The notes under the pieces: generated by a model
The model's database searches: none
Seen by the model: only the letters and a program-made list of their open reading frames with translations
Told to the model about the DNA's origin: nothing
Shown: positions 1-29,761 of the stretch, piece by piece
Position numbering within the stretch: the stretch's first letter is position 1
How the letters are laid out: each line of letters opens with the position of its first letter
NCBI RefSeq assembly: GCF_900232105.1
Contig: NZ_LT934425.1
Location: 4,020,001-4,052,000, forward strand
Direction: 5' to 3'
Source of the DNA: Candidatus Kuenenia stuttgartensis
GTDB lineage: Bacteria; Planctomycetota; Brocadiia; Brocadiales; Brocadiaceae
DNA length: 32,000 nucleotides
Program-made: the position numbers and the translations under genes

Positions 1-845
1 CTGTCCAGTTCATCAGCGGAGTATTGTGAAGGATTAAAATCTTTACGGGTAGCCACTGCCGGTTCCTTTACAAAACCGTCCTGAATAGCCTTCGCTAATG
101 AATATTCAAACACGACATTTTTAAACTTAATAGGCCCTCCGCTTCGTTCTATTTGGGGTGTCGCTGTAAGTTCCAATCCTAAAATAGGGTTTAATTCATT
201 AATAACCTGCATGCCTCTGGCTGCCCGGTAGTGATGTGATTCGTCCATCAGCAAAACCAGGCCATCGAGGTTTGAAAGGTAATTGAAATAAGAATCGCCT
301 AAATATTCTGAAAGCCTTTTTACGCGTGGAAGCTTGCCGCCCTTCGTTTCGGCATTTATCTTGGAGATGTTAAAAATGTTGATATGAATATCAGTTATGA
401 ACATTTTTGTCTGGCGAATTTCATTATAATTATCGCCGGTAATAATACGGGGTTGGTTATGAACAAACTCCCCAATGCCCTGAAATACGTATTTTGGGCA
501 ATTCGGATTGGAAAAGTCCTCAATGAGCTTATTATAAATGGTAATATTCGGCGCTAGTACGAAATAGTGCTTTATGCCCTTTGAAAGATATAAATAAGCG
601 ACAAATGCCCCCATTAAGCGCGTCTTTCCAACACCAGTGGCTAAAGCGAAACAGAGAGAAGGGAAGTTTCTTTCAAAGTCAGCACAAGCAGGATAGGCGC
701 TTTTGACTATCTCCAGTGCCGCGAATAAATCGCCATTTTTCTGAAGGGTCAATTTATCCGTCAGCTCTGCCAGTATATTCAGGCTGTCTGCCTGCGGCAA
801 GCGAAGGCTTAAGCGATTCTTGATGGTATTTGCTATGCGATTCAT
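1..845 (-). CDS. res: Type III restriction enzyme Res subunit (DExH helicase-type). Only the N-terminal ~281 codons are present; the gene runs off the window start.
   Basis: Absent from the ORF track because there is no stop in the window. My translation from the ATG at 845-843 gives MNRIANTIKNRLSLRLPQADSLNILAEL...CFALATGVGKTRLMGAFVAY (helicase motif I / Walker A)...LVLLMDESHHY (motif II DExH). An AAGGA Shine-Dalgarno overlaps the upstream toxin stop. The gene lies downstream of a beta-class Mod gene. Confidence 0.75.
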   Translation of the reverse strand, partial: MNRIANTIKNRLSLRLPQADSLNILAELTDKLTLQKNGDLFAALEIVKSAYPACADFERNFPSLCFALATGVGKTRLMGAFVAYLYLSKGIKHYFVLAPNITIYNKLIEDFSNPNCPKYVFQGIGEFVHNQPRIITGDNYNEIRQTKMFITDIHINIFNISKINAETKGGKLPRVKRLSEYLGDSYFNYLSNLDGLVLLMDESHHYRAARGMQVINELNPILGLELTATPQIERSGGPIKFKNVVFEYSLAKAIQDGFVKEPAVATRKDFNPSQYSADELD

Positions 846-854
846 TTTTTGTCC

Positions 855-1169
855 TTAGGCAATGCTATTATCAAAAATATCTTCTTTCAGTAAACGGCTT
901 CCATGCAGTACCGTAACGATCATTACTTTATCTTTTGCTTCATCATACCGGTAAATTATCCGATAATTGCCCATAATCAATTCCCGATACGGCGTATTTG
1001 GAAATTCCGGTAAAAAACGTCCCGCATTGGGGAATAATTGCAATCTTTCTGTGGATTTAAAGATATTTTGGATAGTATATTGTGCGTATAAAAGGGAATC
1101 TCTTGCTATATAGTCATAAATACCTTCTGAATCTGATATGGCTCTTTCAGACCAGATTACTGTTGCCAT
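855..1169 (-). CDS. Type II toxin-antitoxin system toxin, RelE/ParE family
   Basis: 104 aa. The start MATVIWSERAISD..IYDYIA and the end ..YRIIYRYDEAKDKVMIVTVLHGSR are typical of ParE/RelE plasmid-stabilisation toxins. It overlaps the upstream small ORF by 13 nt. Confidence 0.8.
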   Translation of the reverse strand: MATVIWSERAISDSEGIYDYIARDSLLYAQYTIQNIFKSTERLQLFPNAGRFLPEFPNTPYRELIMGNYRIIYRYDEAKDKVMIVTVLHGSRLLKEDIFDNSIA

Positions 1170-1345
1170 TTCTTCGATAACCTTTCTATCGCTTCTTCAT
1201 GGGAAAATGTTCGCCCTTCGGCTATATCTTTTTCACCCATCTCAATTTTTTGAAGCATGTATATACGATACATAACGTCTTCCACCTCTACCTTTTCGGG
1301 TAACTCTTTTATCAGTTCTTCCAATTTTGATTTAATAATCTGCAT
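1157..1345 (-). CDS. Putative antitoxin partner of the RelE/ParE toxin
   Basis: 62-aa ORF immediately upstream of the toxin and overlapping it. The C-terminal pattern ..KIEMGEKDIAEGRTFSHEEAIERLSKKW resembles small antitoxin/addiction-module components. The assignment rests mainly on position and size. Confidence 0.6.
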   Translation of the reverse strand: MQIIKSKLEELIKELPEKVEVEDVMYRIYMLQKIEMGEKDIAEGRTFSHEEAIERLSKKWQQ

Positions 1346-1544: not shown

Positions 1545-3326
1545 TTATTTCTCACGTGCTTTTTCCTCTGCAAAGAGAGACCGTTGAACTATTTTTTTCT
1601 TTGTGCGTCCCTTACTTCTTTTCTTTTGAGGCGAAATAGCGGTAGGATTTGTTTCCTGAGATTCAATTTTCTCCTCATCCGCTTCAACTGGTAAATTGAC
1701 AATATTTAAACTATAATCCTCTTTCCCAAACTCGCACCTGCCAAGCAACATCTTGGGAATCTTTTTTATGGTGATATTAGCGTAACGATTTTCGCAAGCT
1801 TCCTGAAAAGATTTACAACAAATCAGAAGGCTTTCGTCCGGTTTCATTTCTTCGTGAATCTTATCCAGAGACTGTACCGTAACAAACTGTGTGGTGATAA
1901 AAATATAATCCTTTTCAGTGGAACGGCCTTGCTTCCAGTAAATATGCTCATCCGGGCAGTGTCTAAAACCTTCATGCTTTGCCATAGCTGCGGCGAGCAT
2001 ATCGGCATTGTAACGTTCGTCAATAATCCAGTTGCCATGTTTATCTTTTTTCAGCAAACTTGGGGCTAAGTAGTAATATTTGAAACCACCGCCGCCCTGC
2101 CAGTTCACAGCTTTTGATATGCCACCTTGATCCGTGCCGTCAACTACCTTTTTCAATCGCGGAAGGCAGTGGGTATGGCAATGCTCGCCAAGTTCAATGC
2201 CTATCCACCTGCGCCACATCTTATGGGCAACAGCAGCGGTTGTGCCTGAGCCGAGGAAGGAGTCCAGAACCCAGTCACCGGGGTTAGTGGCGATGTGAAT
2301 GATTCTTTTTAGGAGTCTTTCAGGTTTTGGTGTTTCAAAAGTGTCCTCAATACCAAAAAGGGCATTACATTCCTTTTTCGCTTCTTGGTTATGACCAACT
2401 TCCGAATTCGGCCACCATGTCCAAGCAGCAATACCTTCACTTTCAGAAAGGTATGTCTTTTTTCTTGGAACAGAATCACCATCTTTTCCGAACCAAATTC
2501 TACCTTCAGACAATAGCGTTTGGTAAACAGACTCAATATTACGCCAACAAGACCCGGGTCTTGGTTTATATTTTTTCCCATAAGGAGTAACAATTTCATA
2601 CATCTGATTAGGTCTAAACCCTTTTGCCATAAAATCGGCTGATATCCATGGCCCCTTGGGGTCGTTATCCGGATTTTTGTACCTGCTGAGTTGGTCTTCA
2701 GTTTGTTCAAGAATATTCAATTTTTGTTTAAATAAAGATATGTTTTTTGAAAAAACGAGTATATGGTCATGCCCTGCGCCAATTGTTGCCCTCATATCTG
2801 GTTGAATTCTCTTTTGCCACACAACATTAGCAACAAAATTGCTCCTGCCAAATATCTCATCACAGAGCACCTTCAAATAATGGCATTCATTATCGTCAAT
2901 TGTTATCCATAGAGTCCCGTCAGGGCGTAACAGCCTATGCAATATCTCAATTCTCGGCTTCATCAGGCTCAGCCATATTGAATGCTCAAGACCGTCATCG
3001 TAATGCTCAAAAGCGCTACCAGTGTTATAGGGCGGGTCAATACAAGCGCACTTTATCTCTTCTGCAAAATCCTGTTCAAGGGCTTTCAGCGCAAGGAGAT
3101 TATCGCCGTGGATGAGCATATTACCCACCCCTGAATCCCCTCCCATGAGGGGACTTTTATACTTCCCTCTCGAGATGAGGTTGGGGGTATTTTTATTCCC
3201 CTCTTGAGAGAAGCGAGGGGTGTGTCCATAAGACTTCTCAGGGTCTTCAATTAATATGCGCGGCTCCAGCTTTGGCTGGTTTTCCTTGCCTATCCAGGTG
3301 AGTTCGAGTTTTTGGTTTTTGGTCAT
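1545..3326 (-). CDS. mod: Beta-class N6-adenine/N4-cytosine DNA methyltransferase, type III Mod-like
   Basis: 593 aa. Motif IV IDPPYNTG lies N-terminal and motif I DSFLGSGTTAAVAHKM lies C-terminal, the beta-class order with a central variable region. The N-terminal KLELTWIGKENQ and NMLIHGDNLLALKAL are typical of Mod/N4-N6 MTases. A Res-like helicase follows downstream. Confidence 0.85.
   Translation of the reverse strand: MTKNQKLELTWIGKENQPKLEPRILIEDPEKSYGHTPRFSQEGNKNTPNLISRGKYKSPLMGGDSGVGNMLIHGDNLLALKALEQDFAEEIKCACIDPPYNTGSAFEHYDDGLEHSIWLSLMKPRIEILHRLLRPDGTLWITIDDNECHYLKVLCDEIFGRSNFVANVVWQKRIQPDMRATIGAGHDHILVFSKNISLFKQKLNILEQTEDQLSRYKNPDNDPKGPWISADFMAKGFRPNQMYEIVTPYGKKYKPRPGSCWRNIESVYQTLLSEGRIWFGKDGDSVPRKKTYLSESEGIAAWTWWPNSEVGHNQEAKKECNALFGIEDTFETPKPERLLKRIIHIATNPGDWVLDSFLGSGTTAAVAHKMWRRWIGIELGEHCHTHCLPRLKKVVDGTDQGGISKAVNWQGGGGFKYYYLAPSLLKKDKHGNWIIDERYNADMLAAAMAKHEGFRHCPDEHIYWKQGRSTEKDYIFITTQFVTVQSLDKIHEEMKPDESLLICCKSFQEACENRYANITIKKIPKMLLGRCEFGKEDYSLNIVNLPVEADEEKIESQETNPTAISPQKKRSKGRTKKKIVQRSLFAEEKAREK
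3123..3158 (-). repeat. 36-nt G/C-tract hairpin element, copy 1, in frame inside mod (encodes KSPLMGGDSGVG)
   Basis: acccacccctgaatcccctcccatgaggggactttt matches 5430-5465 at 35 of 36 positions. It contains a cccctc/gagggg stem. Two more similar hairpin-like units follow in 3159-3236. Confidence 0.85.
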
Positions 3327-3436
3327 ACCGAATGCCTTTGCAGTTTCACGCTAAATACTTACTCATTGACAAGCGTGATCTCGGACCCTGTAATTGAGTC
3401 TCTGAATAAATGTACCTGTTCCGTTTATTTCTTTCA

Positions 3437-4768
3437 TTAATCCCAGAGTGAAGACTCTTTAGTATAGTTAGTTAATGAAGAGATGGATTCTTGATGCCCT
3501 TTATTATATTGCGCATTGTATGTATCTATTAAAACTTTGAGACTTAGCATCTCATAGATAACTCTTGCTACATCTGCAAAAGGCACCTCGACATTAAAAT
3601 TACCTTTCTTGATTTTTGCAAAAGGAGTTTCAGTACTTAACTGTTCCGCTTTCGCTCTTAAACAAGTATCCACAATCACCCATCCGTCTTTTTCAAATAT
3701 TTTTAATATTTCAGTAAGATTTATTGTGTAAGTTAAATAAATTCTTCCAATCATTAATGCAGTGATATCTTCTATTGAAAGTGGAAACACTGAGAAAGGG
3801 GCCAAGTTTGCAGAAAAACCACGGCGGTCTAAAGAATTGAAAGAGAAAACAACGTCATTATTTTGTTCCCAACGGTTTTTAACACTTTCATGTCTTGAGT
3901 CAAAATATTCTATGACCTTGTCCATGTCATCTAATTTCTCGAAATCAACGCACTCTAAAATCATATAGTTGCCAATCAATTCGCTAGAACAACACGTTTT
4001 TCTCGCTTTTGCAATAATGTTCTTGGCTATTGCTAAATAATTTTTCAGAGGAACATCACAAGGCAGAATTGTTAGCTTTGTGCCCTCATATTTCGTTATT
4101 CCAGTGTTAAAAAACTCTACTACCTCTTGCAACCTTTCCTTTTGTCTTGTTATCCTTCGTCCCCTTTTCTTTGACGACTTTACTTCTATAAGTTCAATGT
4201 CACCATTATCGTCTATTGTAGTTATATCCCCAGTTCTTAAAAAGTTGCTAATATCATTTATTATCGCCCTCTTTTTTTCATGAAGAATTTCTTTTGAAAA
4301 AACAGATAACTCTGTAATTAATCCCTCGTCAAGGCGAACAGGACCGCTATCCTCTTTGTTTGATAAAGCAGATAAAATCACCCTATTATAGTTTAAACAC
4401 CTCCATGCTATTCCATCAATTATAGTCTTTAATGACTGATTGACTAGAAGGACAGCGCCTATCTGGTTCTGATATGTCCTTATTTGCTTCTCCCTATCTT
4501 CTTTATGTAAACTTGAATCAGCCGCAAGTTTCTCTAACATAATCTTCATGGCATCAATAGCCTTGGTATGTTGCAATAAGTCGCCTAATATGGATAATTG
4601 AAGCTTATAAATAGAGAATTTACTTTTACTCCTTTTTCGGCTTATGAACAAGTAATCCTCAATTATTTCCTTGTAATCTTCTTGTAATGGCATCCATATG
4701 GCATTAATCAGACGGGAATAATCTCGTTTTTTACTACCAGCGGTAACTATTTTTTGTTTAAATTCCAT
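3437..4768 (-). CDS. Hypothetical 443-aa protein with a PD-(D/E)xK-like nuclease motif; orphan, AT-rich
   Basis: Long uninterrupted ORF. The segment TGDITTIDDNGDIELIEVKSSKKRGRR fits the D...(D/E)xK restriction-endonuclease-fold pattern. I recognise no other family. Spot counts of 60-nt lines give about 30% GC here (lines 3481, 4201) against about 47% in mod (line 2101). Confidence 0.6.
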   Translation of the reverse strand: MEFKQKIVTAGSKKRDYSRLINAIWMPLQEDYKEIIEDYLFISRKRSKSKFSIYKLQLSILGDLLQHTKAIDAMKIMLEKLAADSSLHKEDREKQIRTYQNQIGAVLLVNQSLKTIIDGIAWRCLNYNRVILSALSNKEDSGPVRLDEGLITELSVFSKEILHEKKRAIINDISNFLRTGDITTIDDNGDIELIEVKSSKKRGRRITRQKERLQEVVEFFNTGITKYEGTKLTILPCDVPLKNYLAIAKNIIAKARKTCCSSELIGNYMILECVDFEKLDDMDKVIEYFDSRHESVKNRWEQNNDVVFSFNSLDRRGFSANLAPFSVFPLSIEDITALMIGRIYLTYTINLTEILKIFEKDGWVIVDTCLRAKAEQLSTETPFAKIKKGNFNVEVPFADVARVIYEMLSLKVLIDTYNAQYNKGHQESISSLTNYTKESSLWD

Positions 4769-4956
4769 AATACTTATCAGTTTGTTGATTTATTCTGTAA
4801 ATAGGCTCTGTCTTGCAAATATACATTCATCGCCGCAGCAAGCGATTCTGTCAGTTTGATCTCAGTCTGGCATTTCGGACAAGTAATCATTGGCTCTGTT
4901 ATATATATCTCATAGAGAGTGTCGACAAACCGGCTTCCCGACGAGCAACGCAATCC

Positions 4957-5021: not shown

Positions 5022-7916
5022 TTAAATAAGTTTCCATCTAACGGTAAACAATTCTGCTTTTTCAATCTTTTGTTTTAAGCGTGCCTCTATCTCATCTATC
5101 AATCTTTCCTTCCTGTTATCTACGTCATCCTGTGTCTGATACAAATTTAAACGCATGGTGTTTCGTTTCTTTTCCATTTCCTTTATCTGCCTGTGTGCCG
5201 TTACCTTCTCTTCAAGATTGAGGATTTTTTTGGCTTCTGTCTTTCGGCATTTTATCTCTTTATCCAATTCTTTCAATTCAATTTCCATGCTGCTTTTCAC
5301 ATCTTCTGCCCATCTGTCTAATTTTTCCATCTCTGTATCGAAGAAACCTGCATTACGTACAGCATTCATTTGCAGGATTTCGGCTTGCTGTTTTTGGGCT
5401 ATTTGATTTATGAGATTTTTAACATGAGAACCCACCCCTGAATCCCCTCCCAAGAGGGGACTTTTTGATGCGGGAAGGGAAAATAGCCTTTTGCATTGCT
5501 CAATATCCAATTCTGTACCTTCATCTGTCACGCTACATAACAAAATTTGATCTTCAGTTTCAAACGAATTAATTGTTAAGTTAATTACAGATAACCAGCC
5601 CGACTTTGCTATAAGGGACTCTAAAATATTTATTTTCTTGATAGAGTCTGAGTAATTAAATGCTAACTCCTGAACTACTAATGATAAAGACTTTGTTTTT
5701 TCGATAATACGCTGAGCCAAAGGATGCCCAACTCTATAAATGTTTACGTCGTCAATATTCTTTCCCAGTTTGTAGGGGCCAGGATGTATCTTTTCGTCAA
5801 CAAAAGGGTTTTCACGTAAAATAAAAGAATGCTCGTCTATAGCGAAATCAGCGTAAGGTTCAAGGTAGTGTTTAGTAATTTCCCATAACCAATATTCATA
5901 CTTGGACAAATATTCTTTACTCTCCTGTAAATTAACGCGTAATTTTTCATGTACCTCCTCATCGAAATTTTCTAACAAATTATTTCTGGCGTCTTTCATA
6001 CGGTCTTCAATCTGTTCTTCCAGTTCCTTTTGTAACTGGTCAAATAAGGACTGTATTTCTCCCGAAGTTCTGCAATGCTGGTAAATCTGTGCAATCCGTT
6101 TTTCAAAATTAACACCTGATTCAATACTACCCAATACTTCATCGCTTGCCCCGAAAATGCCGTCAAAAAGCTTGAATTTTTCTTTCAATAACTGATAAAC
6201 CCTCTGGTCTGCGGCATTACTCTTATTTAGGAAATTTACGACAACCACATCAAACTTTTGCCCATACCGGTGGCATCGCCCGATTCTTTGTTCGATACGT
6301 TGAGGATTCCAGGGTAAGTCATAATTTACTACCAGAGAGCAAAATTGCAGGTTAATACCTTCTGCGGCGGCTTCTGTGGCTATCAGGATGACTGCCTCAT
6401 CTCTGAAATAATCTACTATTGCAGCCCGCTTATCGGCACTTTTTGAGCCTGTGATTCTGTCTGTGCCAAGATGCCTCTCGATCCATTTTTTATAGATTTC
6501 TTTGGATTTCTGATCGTTGTTCGAGCCGTTAAATAAAACTATCCTGTCCTTGTGCTCAGTATTTTCTAAGATGCTATTCAGATATTCTTGTGTTCTTGTA
6601 GATTCGGTAAATATGATGGCTTTTTTATTACCACCCAGACGTTCTATTTCAGCAAAACCTTTTTTCAGGGCGGTCAGGAGAACCTCTCCCTTTGAATTTC
6701 GGGTAATAGACCTGGCAAGATATTGAAATCCCTTCAGGTCGTTGATTTCCTTTTTGATGTTTTTGATTTCCTCTGGAGTGTAAAGTTCTTCCTTTGTTTC
6801 AGTAACGGGTTGATTTTCTTCTTCAGCATCCTCCCATTCATCCTTAATTTCATCATAAGATTCAAAATCCTGAGACACTATCTGCTCAATGTCTTCCTGT
6901 CGCCCCTTGGTAGTTACGATATTTTCAAGTTTTATTGCAAGGGCGTCTAATGTCCCTGAAATAGCAAAGGTTGACGATGCCAATAATTTCCTCAAAATTA
7001 ACGTCATGAGTTGTCTTTGACCTGGCGGAAGTGCAAATAAATTTTCCCTTTGTAAATAGGCTGAAACCAGGTCATAAAGCCTTTGTTCATCAGGAGACGG
7101 GACAAACTCTTGCGTTATTGCCATTCTATTGGTGTATTTTACATATTCTAATACCTGCCTGCGGAGCGTCCTTATACAAATGGGTTTTAGTCTTTCTTTA
7201 AGATTATGGAAATCATTTTCATTCGCTAATCTGGCAAACTGATTTTTATAACTCTTTAAATCACCAAAGGTATAATCATCAATGATACTGACTAAACCAT
7301 AGAGTTCTAACAAAGAATTTTGGAGCGGCGTTGCGGTAAGCAGCATTTTTGGAGCGTGGGCTACGGCATTTTTGACGGCAGTGGCAATTTTATTTGACGG
7401 CTTATAAACGTTTCTTAATCTATGTGCTTCATCGATGACCACTAAGTCCCAAGGGATATTTTTGATATAAACATCTTTAGCCCTTGCAAAATGGTATGAG
7501 CAAATGATTATTTCGTTCTGGTTGAAGGGGTTTAAGTTTCCTTTTTTAATTTCCTGATTAAAAGAAGGCGTTTCCAGTATAAGTGATGAAAGGTAGAATT
7601 TATCCAGTAATTCCTGATTCCATTGCTTACGAAGGTTTGATGGCACTATAACCAGAATTTTCCGTTTTCTTTCAGCCCATTTTTGAGATATAACCAGACC
7701 GGCCTCGATGGTTTTCCCCAGACCTACCTCGTCCGCCAGTATAGCACCCTTTGAAAGCGGGGAATGGAAGGCAAATAAAGCAGCCTCGACCTGATGCGGA
7801 TTTAAGTCTACCTGGGCGTCTAAAAGAGAAGAAGCCAGCTTTTGCAAACTATCTGAAGAACTGCGTTTTGTAAGCTCAAAAGCAAAATATTTTGCGTGGT
7901 AAGGCGTTATTTGCAT
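5022..7916 (-). CDS. SNF2-family (RAD54-like) helicase/ATPase, 964 aa, with a C-terminal coiled-coil
   Basis: Motifs found: DLNPHQVEAALFA, motif I ILADEVGLGKT, motif II VVIDEAHRLRN, helicase-C AAEGINLQ...NYDLPWNPQRIEQRIGRCHRYGQK. The tail is K/E-rich and coiled-coil-like. Confidence 0.9.
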   Translation of the reverse strand: MQITPYHAKYFAFELTKRSSSDSLQKLASSLLDAQVDLNPHQVEAALFAFHSPLSKGAILADEVGLGKTIEAGLVISQKWAERKRKILVIVPSNLRKQWNQELLDKFYLSSLILETPSFNQEIKKGNLNPFNQNEIIICSYHFARAKDVYIKNIPWDLVVIDEAHRLRNVYKPSNKIATAVKNAVAHAPKMLLTATPLQNSLLELYGLVSIIDDYTFGDLKSYKNQFARLANENDFHNLKERLKPICIRTLRRQVLEYVKYTNRMAITQEFVPSPDEQRLYDLVSAYLQRENLFALPPGQRQLMTLILRKLLASSTFAISGTLDALAIKLENIVTTKGRQEDIEQIVSQDFESYDEIKDEWEDAEEENQPVTETKEELYTPEEIKNIKKEINDLKGFQYLARSITRNSKGEVLLTALKKGFAEIERLGGNKKAIIFTESTRTQEYLNSILENTEHKDRIVLFNGSNNDQKSKEIYKKWIERHLGTDRITGSKSADKRAAIVDYFRDEAVILIATEAAAEGINLQFCSLVVNYDLPWNPQRIEQRIGRCHRYGQKFDVVVVNFLNKSNAADQRVYQLLKEKFKLFDGIFGASDEVLGSIESGVNFEKRIAQIYQHCRTSGEIQSLFDQLQKELEEQIEDRMKDARNNLLENFDEEVHEKLRVNLQESKEYLSKYEYWLWEITKHYLEPYADFAIDEHSFILRENPFVDEKIHPGPYKLGKNIDDVNIYRVGHPLAQRIIEKTKSLSLVVQELAFNYSDSIKKINILESLIAKSGWLSVINLTINSFETEDQILLCSVTDEGTELDIEQCKRLFSLPASKSPLLGGDSGVGSHVKNLINQIAQKQQAEILQMNAVRNAGFFDTEMEKLDRWAEDVKSSMEIELKELDKEIKCRKTEAKKILNLEEKVTAHRQIKEMEKKRNTMRLNLYQTQDDVDNRKERLIDEIEARLKQKIEKAELFTVRWKLI
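5430..5465 (-). repeat. 36-nt G/C-tract hairpin element, copy 2, in frame inside the SNF2 gene (encodes KSPLLGGDSGVG)
   Basis: acccacccctgaatcccctcccaagaggggactttt has the same orientation and reading frame as copy 1. Confidence 0.85.
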
Positions 7917-8323
7917 TAATTATAGCATTCAGGGAATTATTTACTCTTTAAACAAAAGACCCAAATTACCTATTTTCTTTAGGTTTGTGTGTGGAGTATA
8001 AATCATTCAAAAACTTATTTCAATACCCGTTCATAATTCATACTTTCTGAGTGGCTTTGCGTGGGAAAAGAAAAAACTTTCTATTACAACTCGTTTGGGT
8101 TAGTGGATTTTAGGAGTACGGGGGATTGTTTAATTTATACTCAAGATGCTCATAAAATGTGAATTTTAAATTGATGATATGGTGGCACGGACAAACCTTG
8201 TTTGTCCGTGTTGAACTGGTACGACATTGTCTATAAATCACCAATGGTGAACCTCTTGAGTATCACTATTTCTACAAAAGTACAAAGGAATATACTCTTA
8301 AGTGCCTATGGTAACCCTTTTTG

Positions 8324-8851
8324 TTATGGCGCTGCTAATTCCTCTGCCTTTGGCAGATCCTTAATGTTTTTTAAGCCGAAATGTTCAAGAAATTTCTTTG
8401 TAGTGCCGTATAATAAAGGGTGTCCAAGAGATTCGTCCCTCCCAACTACCTTAACAAGGTCTTTTTCCATTAGTAGTCTTATGATTTGACCTGATTGAAC
8501 GCCGCGGATAGACTCAACATCAGCCCGCAATACAGGCTGTTTGTATGCAATGATTGCAAGTGTTTCCAGTGAGGCCGAAGAAAGTTTTGTTTCAGCCGAT
8601 TTTTTACGCAGTTTCGATATCCATTCGTGATACTCAGGCAGTGTGTAGAGTTGGAAGCCGCCTGCAATCTCTTCAATCTGGAATGCCCTCCCCTGCTGAT
8701 TATATTCTTGTTGCAGTAAAGTAATGGCTTCCTTTATGAGGGCGGCGTCAACATCATCGATAATGTTACATATTTTTTTGCTGGAAAGAGGTTCTTCCGC
8801 AGAAAACAGCAACGCTTCAACAATGGGTTTTATTTCTTCAATGTTTTTCAT
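8324..8851 (-). CDS. scpB: Segregation and condensation protein B
   Basis: 175 aa. The start ..IVEALLFSAEEPLS and the later ETLAIIAYKQPVLRADVESIRGV..LMEKDLV are typical ScpB winged-helix repeats. Confidence 0.85.
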   Translation of the reverse strand: MKNIEEIKPIVEALLFSAEEPLSSKKICNIIDDVDAALIKEAITLLQQEYNQQGRAFQIEEIAGGFQLYTLPEYHEWISKLRKKSAETKLSSASLETLAIIAYKQPVLRADVESIRGVQSGQIIRLLMEKDLVKVVGRDESLGHPLLYGTTKKFLEHFGLKNIKDLPKAEELAAP

Positions 8852-8888
8852 GGTGGGAAAAATATCGTATCAATTCCTGCTTAATGAC

Positions 8889-9620
8889 TCACTTGATTTG
8901 CCAGGTATATTCCTGCAATTCGATTTTGATTTTTTCGATTGCATTCTGTACCGCTTTTACTGCGGCATTTGTAGAGATGGTCGCTCCCGTGATTGCTGTA
9001 ATTTTTTCTTTATCCGCAACTTTGGAAACTACCAGTTGATTATATGTCTTATCTTTAAATTGTTCCTGAAACCATGGACGCAGTTCCGTTGCCGCTCCAT
9101 TCCCGGAATTATTGCCTTCTTTTCCCTGATGCATGTTAAATTCAGGCAATTGTTGGATTTTCCCATGGTCAACCCCTGAAGTTTTCCCGAAAAAACTCAT
9201 TAAAACGCTCAATAAAGTATCAGAGCTTTCCTTTTCTACCATTTTCGTGCCGAGGCCAGGTGTTTCCCGCTGTGAGATGATATCGATTCCGAGAATTTTT
9301 TCCAGATTTGAATCGAGCCCCACCATTACATTTATTCTGCTTGAATATCCCTGCGCTTCACCGCTTGCCGCATATCCTATCAATTCCCCTTCACCATTTA
9401 CGCCCTTGTATATTTTGTCCTGATTCTTTGTATTGGGCGGAGAAATTTCTTCCGGTGTTTCATCAATGCCGGGAAGCACCGTAAAGAGCGCCCTGGTGCG
9501 AACCTCCGACTCTTTTTCCCTTATTTTTTCTTTCGTAGTCAGGTACGTTGAGGAAACACCAATTGATGCCAGAAGGGTAACAATCGTTAGAACTACCGGG
9601 TATTGGACTTTTTTTTTCAT
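8889..9620 (-). CDS. rnfG: Rnf electron-transport complex subunit G (FMN-binding domain)
   Basis: N-terminal TM helix and an FMN_bind-type motif ITAITGATISTNAAV near the C-terminus. It lies directly after rnfD. At 243 aa it is longer than usual because of a G/N-rich insert (HQGKEGNNSGNGAA). Confidence 0.75.
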   Translation of the reverse strand: MKKKVQYPVVLTIVTLLASIGVSSTYLTTKEKIREKESEVRTRALFTVLPGIDETPEEISPPNTKNQDKIYKGVNGEGELIGYAASGEAQGYSSRINVMVGLDSNLEKILGIDIISQRETPGLGTKMVEKESSDTLLSVLMSFFGKTSGVDHGKIQQLPEFNMHQGKEGNNSGNGAATELRPWFQEQFKDKTYNQLVVSKVADKEKITAITGATISTNAAVKAVQNAIEKIKIELQEYTWQIK

Positions 9621-9623
9621 GTT

Positions 9624-10655
9624 CTATTTTTTTACTTTTGAACCATAAAGGCGTGGTTTTGTGAATCGGTCAATAAGAGGAGTCGCAGTATTCATGATCA
9701 GAATTGAATAACAAACGCCCTCGGGATAACCTGAATAAAACCGGATTAAAATAGTTAATAACCCCGCCCCAACAGAAAAAATTAACATCCCTTTTTTTGT
9801 AAGAGGAGTGGTTACCATGTCTGTCGCCATAAAAAATGCGCCCAAAAAGAGGCCTCCGGCAAATAAATGGTAAAAAGGGTTATTTGCCCATGGGGTAATT
9901 GTACGAGGAGGCAGAAAAATCGATACGACAAAAACGGTCAAAAGATACGCAACAGGCACGTACCATTTTATACATTTTTTATACAGAAGGTATAATCCCC
10001 CTGCAAGCAGCGCAATCGCGGAGGTCTCTCCAATACAACCCGGCACACTGCCAATCAACAACTGGTAAAAATTATATAATTCTGCCCCGGATTCCTTTGC
10101 AAGAGGGGTTGCCCTGGTTACCGCATCCAGAAGCAGGCCGCTTTCCCCCGTACTGGTAATGTTTTTCAATACATTCATTGCGCCCGGATCTGAAAAGAAT
10201 CGCCAATCTGAATTTACCGAAACAGGATATGCCACCTGCAAAAAAGCGCGTGCAGCAAGTGCAGGATTCCATATATTATTCCCTAAACCACCAAAAGAGT
10301 GTTTAACAACAGCGATCGCAAAAAACGATCCTACCACAGGGACATACCACGGAGCGCCTGGAGGCAATGTATAAGCAAGCAAGATGGCGGTAACAATGGC
10401 GCTGCCATCCTTAATCATTGCAAAAGCAGGCTGCTTTTTCATAAGTGAAATGACAATTTCCGTGACGAGAGCAGTAAGGCAACATAAACCAATAACAAAG
10501 AGGACATAATAACCAAAAACAAAAATGGCAGCGAATCCTGCAGGAAGTAAAGAGAGAACGACAGTCCACATGATATGAGAAATGCTGTCATTGTCTCTCA
10601 TATGAGGCGATGAACTGACGATTAAAGGAGTTACGCTCTGAGTAGTATTTGTCAT
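9624..10655 (-). CDS. rnfD: Rnf electron-transport complex subunit D (RnfD/NqrB family)
   Basis: Polytopic membrane protein carrying SSSPH, FGGLGNNIWNPALAARAFL and FFMATDMVTTP, which are characteristic of RnfD/NqrB. Confidence 0.85.
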   Translation of the reverse strand: MTNTTQSVTPLIVSSSPHMRDNDSISHIMWTVVLSLLPAGFAAIFVFGYYVLFVIGLCCLTALVTEIVISLMKKQPAFAMIKDGSAIVTAILLAYTLPPGAPWYVPVVGSFFAIAVVKHSFGGLGNNIWNPALAARAFLQVAYPVSVNSDWRFFSDPGAMNVLKNITSTGESGLLLDAVTRATPLAKESGAELYNFYQLLIGSVPGCIGETSAIALLAGGLYLLYKKCIKWYVPVAYLLTVFVVSIFLPPRTITPWANNPFYHLFAGGLFLGAFFMATDMVTTPLTKKGMLIFSVGAGLLTILIRFYSGYPEGVCYSILIMNTATPLIDRFTKPRLYGSKVKK

Positions 10656-10705
10656 AGTTTTTACTTTATGCCGATTATTTTTACGTTACACGATAGAAAC
10701 GAATG

Positions 10706-12046
10706 CTATTTCTTTGTTTTTTGTTTTGCAATAAGGGCCTTTGTAAATTTGATGTGATGCACAATAGGCCGTTTTGCAGGGCAAATATAAGTGCAACAGC
10801 CGCATTCTTTGCATTCAAGAACATTATTCTCCAACGCAAGGGAAATATTCATGGATTCCCCCATAATACTTAACTCGCTTGGGTTGAGTCCGTATGGGCA
10901 ACTGACGATGCACCGCCCGCACCGTATACATGCATGAGATTCATAGTGCGGCTGGTTTTTCAGAACAAGAATTCCACCCGTTCCCTTAATCGTCACGGCG
11001 TTATCGATGCTCCCCTGCGCAATGCCCATCATTGGACCCCCAAAGATAATCTTATTGAGGCCAACAGAGGTTCCGGTGATTTCTAATAAATCCCGGACTG
11101 GCGTTCCAATGCGGACGCGCAAATTTTGAGGTTTATTGACTCCATTCCCCGTTACCGTAATTATTCTTTCGATCAAAGGACGCTTATATTTCACCGCATT
11201 ATTGATTGCAAACGCCGTTGCAACATTTATAACGACAGCGCCTGCCTCCATGGGGAGTTGAGTGGGTTTGAATTCACGACGTAATAATGCTTTAATAAGC
11301 TGATGTTCTGCACCCTGAGGGTATTTTACTTCCAATAAATCTATTTTAATGGAAGGATCTCCAGCCAGGGTATTTTTCAATAATTCGTAGACGTCTTTTT
11401 TATTCGCTTCAATGCCGATATGCGCTTTTTTACAACCAATGCATTTCATAACAAGCCGCAATCCCTCAAGGACTTCATTTGCATTGTTACGCATAACGTA
11501 ATGATCGCAGGTAAGATATGGCTCGCATTCCGCCCCGTTCATCACGATAGTATCTATCGTTTTATCTTTTGGGGGAGTAAGTTTTACGTGTGTGGGGAAT
11601 GTTGCGCCGCCAAGTCCTACAATACCGGCGGAGAAAACCCTTTGTCTGATCTCTTCCGGGGTGATATTTTCAGTGTCCTGTTCAACGTTTAACGTCTCAG
11701 CCCATTCTTCCTCGCCGGAATTCTCGATAACTACCGCCAGAGACTTTGCACCGGCGACAGGATGCGGATATGGCGACACATCAACGACCTTGCCGCAAAC
11801 GGAAGCATGTATGTTGGAGGAAACAAAACCATGCGCCTCGCCAATTAACTGTCCGATTTTTACCTGATCCCCTTTGTTGACAATGGGTTTTGCCGGCGCG
11901 CCAATGTGTTGATTCATAAACAGATATACTTTTTTTGGAATCGGGGAGCAAATCTCACTTATTTCAGAAGTAAGCACTTTTCCATCCTCTTTGGGATGTA
12001 TCCCCCCTGCAAAAGTATTCAATTTTGATTTCATTAATGCGTACAT
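10706..12046 (-). CDS. rnfC: Rnf electron-transport complex subunit C
   Basis: Motifs found: GGIHP start region, GLGGATFPTHVKL, MNGAECEPYLTCD, and two ferredoxin-type clusters CIRCGRCIVSCP and CKECGCCTYICP. Confidence 0.9.
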   Translation of the reverse strand: MYALMKSKLNTFAGGIHPKEDGKVLTSEISEICSPIPKKVYLFMNQHIGAPAKPIVNKGDQVKIGQLIGEAHGFVSSNIHASVCGKVVDVSPYPHPVAGAKSLAVVIENSGEEEWAETLNVEQDTENITPEEIRQRVFSAGIVGLGGATFPTHVKLTPPKDKTIDTIVMNGAECEPYLTCDHYVMRNNANEVLEGLRLVMKCIGCKKAHIGIEANKKDVYELLKNTLAGDPSIKIDLLEVKYPQGAEHQLIKALLRREFKPTQLPMEAGAVVINVATAFAINNAVKYKRPLIERIITVTGNGVNKPQNLRVRIGTPVRDLLEITGTSVGLNKIIFGGPMMGIAQGSIDNAVTIKGTGGILVLKNQPHYESHACIRCGRCIVSCPYGLNPSELSIMGESMNISLALENNVLECKECGCCTYICPAKRPIVHHIKFTKALIAKQKTKK

Positions 12047-14887: not shown

Positions 14888-15844
14888 TTAATCCGTAGCT
14901 ATTTTTTTTGTGATGGAAGCGCTTTCAACGAGATTGACAAGCCACGGCCTTAATCTTTCTCTGTATTTTTTTTCCCGTACTAATTCTTCCAACTCTTTTT
15001 TTACCGTATCAAACTTTTTGTCGCTTCCGGTTTTTCTACCGGTAATTTTTACAATGTGATAGCCGTAATTTGTATTTATAATACCGCTTAACTCACCCGG
15101 CTTGAGATGCGCAACTGATTTTCCAATATCGTCTTCCGGACTAAATGGCAACATCTTCCCATCTCTTGAAGCAGAAGCGCGGTCAATCGACTGGGCCTTT
15201 GCCATTTTCGTAATATCCGCGCCTAAACGCAGTTTCTCAAGAGCTTCTTCCGCCTCTCTTTTCGTTTTCAAAACTATCTGCTGCGCCTCGATTTTTTCTC
15301 CATAAATACTTTTATATGCCTCTTGCAAATCCTCTTCAGATACTGAAATCGTCTTCATTACAACCTTTTCAGCACGTAATTCAATCTCTGCCTCTTTTAC
15401 TAATCTCTTCGTTAATTTATCTTTAAACTCTTTAAGACTTGCACCGATCTTTTCCAGTTCCTTATCAAGATCCGCTTCGTTTTCTATTTTGTACGTTTGC
15501 AGTAAAGCGTTCACTTCGCGCTGCACAAGGGTGTTTATCTTGTTTTCTACTTCCTTAGTGGTAAGTGATATTCCATGTTTTCTTGCCTCCTGGTTTATAA
15601 GCGTTCTTCTGATAAGAACATCAAGGGCTTCATTTCCATAAGTACTCAATAAAAGTTCATATAGCTCATTGCTGGTAATCTTTTGTCCATTGACAATAGC
15701 AACAACATCCTTGTCTTCTTTTGATTCTTTACTTACAAGTACTATACTGGTTTCAGAGTTAGCTGACACACTCTGATTGTGGATACTAAAACTTCCAAAA
15801 GAAAACATTGCCGCCATAGGTAAGAAGAGGTATTTTCTATTCAT
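14888..15844 (-). CDS. Secreted peptidyl-prolyl cis-trans isomerase, parvulin type (SurA/PrsA-like)
   Basis: N-terminal signal-like segment and a SurA-N-like helical region. The C-terminal parvulin signature reads ..GELSGIINTNYGYHIVKITGRK. Confidence 0.8.
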   Translation of the reverse strand: MNRKYLFLPMAAMFSFGSFSIHNQSVSANSETSIVLVSKESKEDKDVVAIVNGQKITSNELYELLLSTYGNEALDVLIRRTLINQEARKHGISLTTKEVENKINTLVQREVNALLQTYKIENEADLDKELEKIGASLKEFKDKLTKRLVKEAEIELRAEKVVMKTISVSEEDLQEAYKSIYGEKIEAQQIVLKTKREAEEALEKLRLGADITKMAKAQSIDRASASRDGKMLPFSPEDDIGKSVAHLKPGELSGIINTNYGYHIVKITGRKTGSDKKFDTVKKELEELVREKKYRERLRPWLVNLVESASITKKIATD

Positions 15845-15945
15845 AAATATTGCCTTGTACGAGATAAAAATTATTTTTTTAGTAAAAAGTTAGAATTGAG
15901 TTAAAATTATAACACAGAGAAAATTAACGTGTCAATGCTTTTAAA

Positions 15946-16554
15946 ATGAACAAATGGGAGATGTGCAAAGTGACAGGAATTATATTGGCCGGCGGGAAAA
16001 GCACCAGGATGGGAACTAACAAGGCATTTCTTGCCTATGGAAATAAATCCTTCATCGAAATTCAAATCGATATATTAAGGCATATATTCCGGGAAATAAT
16101 TATTTCCGCAAATGACTTCTCCCTGTATGAACATTTACAATTGCCAATCGTTCCTGACGTCATGCCAGGAAAAGGTCCTCTTGGTGGTATTTGTGCGGGA
16201 CTTATTCATTCAAAGTACTCATACGCATTTGTAATCGCCTGCGATATGCCGTTTATTAATAAGGAAGTAATCGTATATATGAAGGAACTTGTCAAAGGCG
16301 ACAATTATGATGTAATTGTTCCGCATACAGTCCGCGGACCCGAACCTCTTCATGCATTTTATTCAAAAAATTGCATTCAAACCATGCAGCGATGCCTTGA
16401 AGAAGAAGACCTGCGGATGTCTGATTTCTTGCAGAAGGTAAATGTGCGGCATGTTAACGAAGAAGAACTTATTAAGTCGGGCAAAGATATAAAATCTTTT
16501 ATCAATCTCAACACCTATAGAGAATATGAAGACTATCGTTCAGAATGCAACTAA
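15946..16554 (+). CDS. mobA: Molybdenum cofactor guanylyltransferase
   Basis: TGIILAGGKSTRMGTNKAFL, ..PGKGPLGGI.. and ACDMPFI are MobA signatures. 202 aa. Confidence 0.85.
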   Translation: MNKWEMCKVTGIILAGGKSTRMGTNKAFLAYGNKSFIEIQIDILRHIFREIIISANDFSLYEHLQLPIVPDVMPGKGPLGGICAGLIHSKYSYAFVIACDMPFINKEVIVYMKELVKGDNYDVIVPHTVRGPEPLHAFYSKNCIQTMQRCLEEEDLRMSDFLQKVNVRHVNEEELIKSGKDIKSFINLNTYREYEDYRSECN

Positions 16555-16573
16555 AACATTTGTCACGGAATAA

Positions 16574-16792
16574 ATGGAAAACCAACCAGACCCGATCATA
16601 TATAATATCGGCCAATTGCTTACCATTCGTGGGGTAACGCAAAAACCAAAGACTTCCTGGCAAATGGACGATTCAGGAATCATAGAGGACGGCGCTGTTG
16701 CAATAAAGGAGGGACAGTTTTTTTACGTGTCTAACACCGAAGAAATAATGGACCGCTACGACTCCGGCACGATCAAAACCATTAATGCCTGA
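16574..16792 (+). pseudogene. Truncated N-terminal fragment of an amidohydrolase (imidazolonepropionase-like)
   Basis: The 72-aa ORF IYNIGQLLTIRG...GIIEDGAVAIKEGQFFYVSNTEEI...IKTINA* matches only the N-terminal beta-sandwich part of metal-dependent amidohydrolases. It stops just before the expected G-x-V-PG-x-D-H-H metal-binding region. Confidence 0.5.
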
Positions 16793-28429: not shown

Positions 28430-29761
28430 TTGTATTTTTTTACAAAAGGGCATGGTATGTTCACACATTTTTTTAACAGGCATAATTTTCAACGGTGTAT
28501 TTCCAAGTATCATCTTCTTCTTGTTTGCTCATTTATTTACTTTAGCGCTTGCCATGAAATCGTCTGTGGGAACGATATACAAACACCGGCTAAAGCAATT
28601 TCTCTTAAAGAGGCAATAGACATTGCTCTTGAAAGAAACCCAGAACTGCAATCAATGAAAGATCAGGTAGAAGCACAAATTGGCTCATTGAAACAGGCTG
28701 GACTCTACCCAAATCCGGTAATTAACTTTCTGGCGGAAGAAATGCCTACAGATGAGATAGGGTTGAATGAGAGCCAAAACCAGGTATCAATAACCCAGCC
28801 CATCATTACCGGAGGGAAAAGAGGCCTTGCAATAAAAGTAAGCGAAAAAGCAAAGGAGAAAAACGAATTTGAACGGGATTCCTTTCTCCTCAGTGTTATT
28901 GCTGATACAAAAAAGGCATTTTACAAGGTGTTAGCAGGTCAGGAAAGTCACTCGGTAGCAAAGGAAACGGAAAAGATATCGAAAGATATTTATGAAAGTG
29001 AAAAGACACGGTTTGAAGCGGGAGAGGTTGCACTTACCAATGTATTCAGGGCAGAGGTGGAATTTTCAAAGGCAAAAAATCTGGTTTCCCGGACTGAAGG
29101 AGAGTTGCAAAACTCTTTCAGGGAATTGCAAACGATCATGGGTATCCCGGAGGCAACCGATTTTGATATCACCGGAAAACTGATAACGACACCCATGGAA
29201 TTGTCGTTTCATGAACTTGAACGGAGTATGAAAAATAATCAGCCGCTTCTCAGGGTGTCTGAAAAGAATATAGAAATAGCGGAAGCCGGGTTACTGCTGG
29301 AACAAAGACAGGCCATACCGAATATCACCGTATCTGCAGGATATAAAAGACTTTCGCAGGAAGACGCTGATACCATTCAATTCAGCCTGGGGATACCCGC
29401 CCCTTTTTTCAACCGTAACCAGGGAAACATACAAAAAGGCAAAGCCCTTTCGAGAAAGGCAAAAAACGAAAGCATGTCGGTTTATCAGCAAATGCTGTTC
29501 GAGTTAAAAAAGAATTTCAACCTGTACAATATTGAAAGGAGACGCCTCATTGAATTTAAAAACAAGATTCTGCCAGGCACAGAAAAGGCCCTCTCCTTAA
29601 TTACAAATGGCTATAAAGAGGGTGAGTTCGATTATATAGACCTGCTGGATACTCAGAGAATCTGGGCAGATACGAGGGTATCATATATCGATGTAATAAA
29701 ACAACTAAACCTGATAATAGCCGATATCGAAAGACTGGCAGTTATCAAAATAGGGAAATAA
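28430..29761 (+). CDS. Outer-membrane efflux factor, TolC/CzcC family
   Basis: ISLKEAIDIALERNPELQSMKDQVEAQIG..AGLYPNP and the C-terminal ..GEFDYIDLLDTQR.. are typical of CzcC/CusC-type OMFs. The start is uncertain; an alternative Met lies at 28457. Confidence 0.85.
   Translation: MYFFTKGHGMFTHFFNRHNFQRCISKYHLLLVCSFIYFSACHEIVCGNDIQTPAKAISLKEAIDIALERNPELQSMKDQVEAQIGSLKQAGLYPNPVINFLAEEMPTDEIGLNESQNQVSITQPIITGGKRGLAIKVSEKAKEKNEFERDSFLLSVIADTKKAFYKVLAGQESHSVAKETEKISKDIYESEKTRFEAGEVALTNVFRAEVEFSKAKNLVSRTEGELQNSFRELQTIMGIPEATDFDITGKLITTPMELSFHELERSMKNNQPLLRVSEKNIEIAEAGLLLEQRQAIPNITVSAGYKRLSQEDADTIQFSLGIPAPFFNRNQGNIQKGKALSRKAKNESMSVYQQMLFELKKNFNLYNIERRRLIEFKNKILPGTEKALSLITNGYKEGEFDYIDLLDTQRIWADTRVSYIDVIKQLNLIIADIERLAVIKIGK

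Follow-up and report, generated by a model that had tools for sequence, protein, structure and literature searches.

A large unannotated protein family with a predicted restriction-type nuclease core, found as optional cargo of an SNF2-Mod-Res operon in Candidatus Kuenenia stuttgartensis

The target ORF and its operon

The stretch of DNA analyzed here (the window) comprises 32,000 nucleotides of the Candidatus Kuenenia stuttgartensis genome (contig NZ_LT934425.1, positions 4,020,001 to 4,052,000 of the forward strand) and carries an open reading frame (ORF) of 443 codons, hereafter the target, inside an operon that encodes an SNF2-family helicase and the Mod and Res subunits of a Type III-like restriction-modification (R-M) system. 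The explanation we favor, to which we would give about an even chance, is that the target encodes a stand-alone, mobile, restriction-like defence nuclease belonging to an undescribed family of proteins of around 450 amino acids (aa). Every gene between 7916 and position 1 lies on the minus strand; in the direction of transcription they are as follows:

5022..7916, minus strand: SNF2-family helicase, DrmD/BrxHII-like, first gene of the operon (Pfam SNF2-rel_dom and Helicase_C)
3437..4768, minus strand: target ORF, 443 aa (uninterrupted ORF call; member of a large unannotated family of ~450 aa)
1545..3326, minus strand: Type III-like Mod DNA methyltransferase, N6_N4_Mtase (PF01555, E=1e-45; PADLOC MTase_III, E=6.6e-189)
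855..1345, minus strand: toxin-antitoxin pair, ParD-like (1157..1345) and ParE (855..1169; ParE_toxin, E=2.4e-17)
1..845, minus strand: Type III Res-like helicase, N-terminal 281 residues with ATGVGKT and DESHH motifs, leaving the window at its left end

An earlier reading of this DNA, made from its letters and ORFs (the sequence-only reading), had placed the target between the SNF2 and mod genes, and the coordinates above confirm this position; the gaps that flank it within the operon are 253 and 110 bp, and its orientation is shared with its neighbours. That reading had also considered the ORF too long and clean to be random, which is borne out by the 443 uninterrupted codons and by a pairwise ratio of nonsynonymous to synonymous substitution rates (dN/dS) of 0.13-0.30 among five close homologues (79-92% identical), including a relocated copy in the locus that we call L024. 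These values indicate a functional gene under purifying selection and exclude a chance ORF. The contrast in composition it had described is real, although its size had been overstated: the target has a GC content of 34.2% (31.1% at third codon positions) versus 43.2% in mod, against the ~30% and ~47% initially proposed, with 38.5% in the SNF2 gene and 41.4% in the whole window. No second copy of the target was found within the window, and another ORF of 443 aa, at 28430..29761, was ruled out as a paralogue, being unrelated. Counts of promoters and terminators were not higher than in shuffled sequence.

Regarding the other members of the operon, the SNF2 gene matches the PADLOC model DrmD with E=1.9e-211 and the NCBIfam model DISARM_DrmD_b with 707.9 bits, which is under the cutoff of 950. 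Res and the toxin-antitoxin pair had gone unnoticed in the sequence-only reading. The part of Res present in the window shares 70-72% identity with ResIII of two related operons (L006 and L014), and its orthologues in other lineages bear RE_endonuc or TnsA-like nuclease domains. Beyond the SNF2 helicase lie housekeeping genes, among them ORFs that are presumably scpB and rnf genes.

An unannotated family with an invariant D...ExK core

None of the models in Pfam, NCBIfam or PADLOC matched the target protein, and its one weak match in PHROGs was phrog_14906, of unknown function, which was also matched by seven of 35 diverse family members (best E=2.4e-9). When these 35 proteins were scanned one by one against the four collections, no consistent curated family emerged. 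A word-indexed search returned 38 homologous clusters, every one labelled hypothetical, and a second search of this type with a broad alignment returned no named member. The silence of Pfam, NCBIfam and PADLOC thus agrees with the initial description of the target as an unassignable ORF, but it is not an orphan: at E <= 0.001 an exhaustive profile search retrieved 1,657 cluster representatives, of which 892 reach E <= 1e-10 and 244 reach E <= 1e-30, and the majority have 420-480 aa and match from end to end. This is a large and widespread family that has so far escaped annotation in those three collections. Its members were found in Brocadiaceae, a deltaproteobacterial metagenome-assembled genome (MAG), and Thermodesulfovibrionales, Syntrophales and Cloacimonadota genomes, and one is located on a plasmid, the linear plasmid pSV2 of Streptomyces (hhalign probability 99.8%). 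The subfamily of the target is sporadic, with only five loci in 185,579 species-representative genomes. Two sets of genes were considered as family paralogues and turned out to be unrelated, namely those of 467 and 485 aa adjoining the target in L006 and L014, and a gene of 497 aa found in operons of Firmicutes.

The positions on which the proposed activity would depend are the following:

4166..4231, minus strand: peptide GDITTIDDNGDIELIEVKSSKK, residues 180-201 (translation and conservation)
4058..4327, minus strand: predicted catalytic core, residues 148-237 (secondary structure of two models and conservation)
4415..4417, minus strand: codon of D118, in a DG[IV]xWR motif that closes the long helix 89-124 (no variation in alignments A1 and A2)

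The restriction-endonuclease-type D...ExK signature that had been noticed in the middle of the protein does correspond to residues 180-201, and its G, D, E and K vary little or not at all throughout the family, down to about 20% identity. In alignment A2, whose 35 sequences reach 19% identity, the invariant positions are Q57, D118, G180, D181, E195, K197, Q209, P324 and W442; in the core-only alignment A7 the G, D, E, K and Q show no variation across 45 diverse core segments; and the pattern GD-x(8-22)-[D/E]xK is kept in 90 of the 97 full-length representatives. Conserved residues of the catalytic type expected in the PD-(D/E)xK superfamily are therefore present, as D181, E195 and K197. The invariance of D118 makes it a candidate additional acidic residue of the putative active site.

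The AlphaFold model of the full protein has a predicted local distance difference test score (pLDDT) of 82.9 and a predicted template modelling score (pTM) of 0.84, and depicts a single globule of 443 aa, with three long N-terminal helices (29-124), a central core and a conserved alpha/beta C-terminal half with the motifs APxS[IV]FP, W363 and W442. The predicted core consists of a helix (148-161), a strand (166-170), G180-D181 followed by a strand (182-186), a strand (191-194) with E195-x-K197, a helix (204-222) that bears R205 and Q209, and finally strands at 224-237. A second, independent model of residues 105-300 (pLDDT 81.7) gave an identical order of elements. As modelled, this order (helix, strand, strand preceded by GD, strand with ExK, helix, strand) is that of the PD-(D/E)xK core. 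The resemblance includes an acidic residue at the start of a strand and an ExK on the next strand about 13 residues further on, within a predicted alpha-beta-beta-beta-alpha-beta arrangement, the closest pattern being the D-x13-E-V-K of the Hjc/NucS type. In addition, the target has an invariant acidic residue on a helix ahead of this stretch and an invariant Q on the helix that comes after it. It differs from the members of the superfamily in that it has no significant match to any of them, in sequence or in structure, and in that its core is embedded in a globule of 443 aa whose N-terminal helices and C-terminal half have no described counterpart.

Cargo slots and movement of the ORF

Homologues of the SNF2 helicase number in the thousands, with 67-74% identity across Nitrospirae, Syntrophaceae, Thermodesulfobacteriota and Firmicutes. 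The SNF2 loci that were sampled share a core of three genes, in the order SNF2, Mod, Res, and differ in what lies between them. The core is contiguous in L100, where the target is absent and 63 bp separate SNF2 from Mod, and the target is equally missing in L106-L111, with gaps of 10 and 4 bp and a Res that bears its own RE_endonuc domain. Elsewhere the slots are occupied by other genes: in L099, a HATPase_c_4 protein along with a fragment of YhcG; in L101, a fragment of YhcG between SNF2 and Mod (first slot), and DUF559 with DUF1016/YhcG between Mod and Res (second slot; 15151-16685); and, in L102-L105, genes unrelated to the target, with the unrelated protein of 497 aa in the Firmicutes loci. 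When the family hidden Markov model (HMM) was run over these 13 additional SNF2 loci (L099-L111), it detected no member of the target family. In L006 and L014 the target is found together with a Phd antitoxin pair and the protein of 467 or 485 aa, and the second slot, which holds ParD/ParE in the window (855-1345), holds DUF559 and MNT/HEPN in L006 (13329-15061). Among the sampled loci, the SNF2-Mod-Res setting is limited to the Brocadiaceae copies of the target. The target is neither Mod nor Res, nor a constant companion of the two, so that it does not qualify as a subunit of a Type III R-M enzyme. These data provide good support for considering it optional cargo in one of two variable slots of the operon, outside the SNF2-Mod-Res machinery, which itself may represent an undescribed SNF2-assisted Type III restriction system.

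A protein of 915 aa encoded in a Brocadiaceae MAG (P0191), 92% identical to the SNF2 helicase of the window, combines SNF2, Helicase_C and N6_N4_Mtase domains. It could be an SNF2-Mod fusion originated by deletion of the slot, or an artefact of assembly or annotation.

The Brocadiaceae-like copy of the target in L024 offers a view of its mobility. Its product is 79% identical in amino acids to that of the target, and SNF2, Mod and Res are all absent from the locus; it is found in an islet (8047-11926) that comprises an AAA_21 ATPase, RloB, the target homologue and a DUF6557 protein, flanked by two radical-SAM genes of the menaquinone (CofH/MqnC) type. Two features of the window are relevant to this comparison:

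3419..4770, minus strand: unit shared with L024, essentially the bare ORF (blastn, single segment, 82.5% identity over 1362 nt)
4777..4953, minus strand: small ORF (...MITCPKCQTEIKLTESLAAAMNVYLQDRAYLQNKSTN) whose CPKC start is zinc-ribbon-like, ending 8 nt ahead of the target ATG

BLAST homology between the two loci begins 2 bp ahead of the ATG and ends 18 bp past the stop codon, and the flanks are unrelated, apart from patchy similarity over ~25 bp upstream seen when the junctions were aligned. Terminal inverted repeats, direct repeats and target-site duplications were not found at the junctions. The target thus travels between genomes as a bare, self-contained ORF. The 5' part of the small ORF is kept in L014 and L006 and missing from L024, a distribution that suggests it is probably the remnant of an earlier occupant of the slot; it presumably resembles the N-termini of DUF2130 proteins. 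The proposal that a horizontally acquired cassette had landed in the R-M operon is well supported in view of the lower GC content of the target, the complete core operons without it in other lineages, the unrelated genes that take its place in others, and the limitation of homology to the ORF in the relocated L024 copy.

These observations bear on whether the target might work as an accessory of the SNF2-Mod-Res system, either as a PrrC-like guardian, which the R-M complex would keep inactive and which would be freed upon inhibition of that complex by a phage, or as an additional nuclease that the SNF2 helicase would recruit. The short gaps and shared orientation would suit such a role, as would the conservation in three Brocadiaceae lineages of the order SNF2-X-Mod-Res, X being the target, with X conserved at 79-90% versus 64-66% for Mod; homologues adjoin other SNF2-type helicases (L017, L049) and an N6_N4 methyltransferase (L031), and effectors embedded in restriction loci have precedents in PrrC, located in the Type IC system EcoprrI, and BrxU, located in BREX (PMC12707154; PMC2610378). 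The target resembles PrrC, RloC and BrxU in being an extra gene among those of restriction subunits, with a slot content that differs between strains, but the proteins are unrelated to it, PrrC and RloC being ABC-ATPase and HEPN anticodon nucleases, and BrxU a GmrSD enzyme. Against an accessory role, all homologues with 41% identity or less were outside SNF2-Mod-Res operons in the sampled loci, the L024 copy dispenses with all three genes, the core operon is compact and complete when the target is missing, and BrxU, the nearest precedent, works independently of its host system (PMC12707154). The existence of such solo homologues argues against a functional coupling of the target to its host operon, and we regard an accessory role as unlikely.

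Still less probable, to the point of being very hard to defend, is that the target acts as a Type II-like restriction endonuclease paired with the adjoining Mod. It is indeed directly upstream of a DNA methyltransferase, both here and in L031, but the cognate Res of Mod is already in the operon, the same Mod family is found with Res in operons that do not have the target, and a DNA methyltransferase is near in only ~4-5 of 67 contexts, so that the adjoining cognate methyltransferase that is obligatory for a Type II enzyme is missing from most of them.

Genomic neighbourhoods and possible function

A broader sample of neighbourhoods consisted of 99 loci, reduced to 76 contexts after dereplication, with 534 neighbouring ORFs that were clustered. 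A conserved partner gene was sought among them and none was found, since no neighbour family appeared in more than five contexts. Bulk annotation covered 148 neighbours in ~55 contexts and identified mobility genes (five tyrosine integrases, two serine recombinases and transposases) along with HEPN (2), AbiU2 (2), ResIII (2), and matches to mad2 (3), mad6 (1) and mad8 (1); ApaLI-like, Type I and Type IV restriction enzymes, DndH, AbiEi and PD-T4-6 were each found in a single instance. Contexts that were annotated individually included NOV_C proteins and, in L031, the adjoining N6_N4 methyltransferase. Such a distribution is that of an accessory gene which is self-sufficient and resides in variable regions; it is compatible with a role in defence and is no proof of it. 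The target had been singled out as the best candidate in this DNA for an undescribed defence component; the integrases and the scattered defence genes near its homologues, among which there is no conserved partner, provide contextual evidence for this view.

In a Syntrophales MAG (L017, 1525-8484), an ArdC-like gene, a DUF6094 methyltransferase and a helicase of 768 aa related to SNF2 precede a homologue with 40% identity. From its gene content, this setting resembles a conjugative element, and it constitutes a second, independent adjacency to an SNF2-type gene. A third is seen in L049, where an SNF2-NOV_C fusion protein adjoins the homologue.

As regards the mechanism, we infer that the protein has a nuclease fold and activity, that its substrate is DNA and that it serves in defence. 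It would be a metal-dependent PD-(D/E)xK DNA endonuclease whose catalytic triad is formed by D181, E195 and K197, probably assisted by D118 and Q209, while the N-terminal helices and the C-terminal half might be in charge of oligomerization and of substrate recognition or control. Acting alone, it would restrict foreign DNA, much as Type IV enzymes do, or single-gene nucleases such as Shedu. A bolder version, in which the more than 1,600 clusters would be single-gene immune nucleases of compact architecture, with the target as founding example, moving as bare ORFs with a preference for the slots of restriction operons and serving as second-line or guardian effectors upon neutralization of R-M, seems to us distinctly improbable.

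Several results weigh against the proposed defence nuclease. The searches for structural relatives failed: Foldseek with the full model against PDB gave nothing significant (the best hit, E=0.017, was an unrelated design), the model of the 105-300 domain listed VRR-NUC as its sole nuclease, in rank 8 with E=2.3, and the full model had no match in BFVD. HMM profiles built from A1, A2 and the core-only A7 produced only noise against PDB sequences, and hhalign comparisons with Mrr_cat, YhcG/DUF1016, DUF559, NOV_C and the C-termini of Res from the fetched loci were not significant. Residues 201-230, within the predicted core, are modelled with low confidence (pLDDT 51-65), which may in part explain the failure of the fold searches. 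Concerning phages, tblastn of three members against INPHARED (50,697 phage records) found no carriage, a scan of IMG/VR found no homologues, and the link to phage biology is limited to the weak PHROG match of unknown function. Finally, many of the neighbours are ordinary housekeeping genes, with some copies located between genes of this kind such as dprA and topA, and the counts of defence genes given above are raw, without a control set.

The failed searches leave room for the conserved D, E, K and Q serving other chemistry or binding, in a fold with no characterized relative. No fold or profile search recovered a nuclease, a confident model (judging by its pTM) has no structural neighbour in PDB, and the sole near-significant PDB matches were EF-hand pairs of centrin/caltractin, with a best E=3e-4 at profile positions 204-290. 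That match was judged a coincidence because the model shows beta-hairpins there and the consensus of the calcium-binding loop is missing; matches to S28e and to an ABC ATPase were likewise rejected, since they rested merely on 'RxGD'. In favor of a nuclease, the GD-x13-ExK spacing, the hydrophobic pattern and the placement on strands fit the restriction-endonuclease signature, whereas the centrin alignment is off the predicted strands and has none of the calcium-binding loop residues. The scattered sub-threshold matches are all to nuclease folds (LmuA, Cas4, NA-iREase1, VRR-NUC, NOV_C and the Hjc-like 2eo0), the last of them having scored E=0.36 across the motif in the comparison of the family profile with PDB sequences. 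PD-(D/E)xK domains are known to be missed by automated detection. Weighing motif and topology against the failed searches, assignment of the protein as a nuclease can be considered likely, short of established, and a different chemistry rather doubtful.

Membership in the PD-(D/E)xK superfamily, as put forward in the sequence-only reading, therefore stands on the invariant D...ExK at canonical positions and finds no significant link, in structure or in profile, to an established member. Of the checks that had been proposed along with it, two gave diverging results: the D, E and K proved to be conserved among homologues, while Foldseek on the AlphaFold model found no significant fold match. The suggested kinship with Shedu or Cap4 found no support, as neither DUF4263, which we take to be Pfam PF14082, nor SduA was detected at E <= 0.1 in the target or in any of 35 family members (0/35). 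The target shares with Shedu and other single-gene nucleases the lack of a partner, a variable N-terminal part combined with a putative D..ExK..Q core, and a location in variable or defence regions; it differs in that its core is central, that of Shedu being C-terminal, and in that its defence role is a prediction. Nor were Type IV domains (Mrr_cat, McrB/C, DUF262/DUF1524, SRA) matched in the Pfam and PADLOC scans or with hhalign.

The mobility of the ORF could also be that of a selfish, homing-type nuclease, which would spread by cutting and inserting into intergenic sites with no defence benefit to the host. The precise relocation of the ORF between unrelated contexts, the copies between housekeeping genes (dprA/topA) or mqn-type genes, the sporadic occurrence of the subfamily and the remnant of an earlier gene at the 5' junction of the target would all be in line with this. 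On the other hand, introns, inteins and phage genomes are absent among the hosts, neither a recurrent insertion site nor flanking repeats were found, and purifying selection has been maintained over deep divergence; to our knowledge, a protein of 443 aa in three parts far exceeds the free-standing homing endonucleases. We consider a selfish element of this sort a poor candidate, and a defence nuclease that moves as a bare ORF remains our preferred reading.

Were this reading true, it would provide the first functional assignment for a family whose sequence clusters number well over a thousand. A stand-alone nuclease with a predicted restriction fold, located in variable regions, is of a known kind, and would be unsurprising to a specialist while being cleanly testable. 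The operon is in addition a clean natural example of cargo turnover, with slots that hold nothing, toxin-antitoxin pairs, other nucleases or the target, and since their contents vary by lineage, these slots are a practical hunting ground for new defence genes.

The host operon itself is reminiscent of DISARM class 1 and ARMADA, systems that combine an SNF2 helicase, a methyltransferase and a helicase-nuclease, and have a YprA/DUF1998 helicase as defining component (PMC13463889; 10.1101/2025.09.15.676423). As in these systems, it opens with a DrmD/ArmA-like SNF2 gene, after which come a methyltransferase of the adenine type and a helicase-nuclease. It departs from them in having a Type III Res as third gene and a methylase of the Mod type, rather than DrmMI or PglX-like, and in the absence of a PLD or UvrD component, and the target ORF has no counterpart in them. 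A DUF1998/YprA gene was not found in the window, L006 or L014, and the target matches no Drm model of PADLOC. This widespread combination of SNF2 and Type III R-M genes, outside the definitions of DISARM and ARMADA, may merit a study of its own.

One further element was observed in this operon. A sequence of 36 nt, AAAAGTCCCCTC[A/T]TGGGAGGGGATTCAGGGGTGGGT, with a hairpin of 7 bp, is present at 3123-3158 and 5430-5465 on the minus strand, with no copies expected by chance. It sits in frame within the mod and SNF2 genes and encodes KSPL[M/L]GGDSGVG in both, and a longer version of ~105 nt is present in two to three copies in the related operons L006 and L014, Res included. It looks like a small mobile repeat that is tolerated inside coding sequence.

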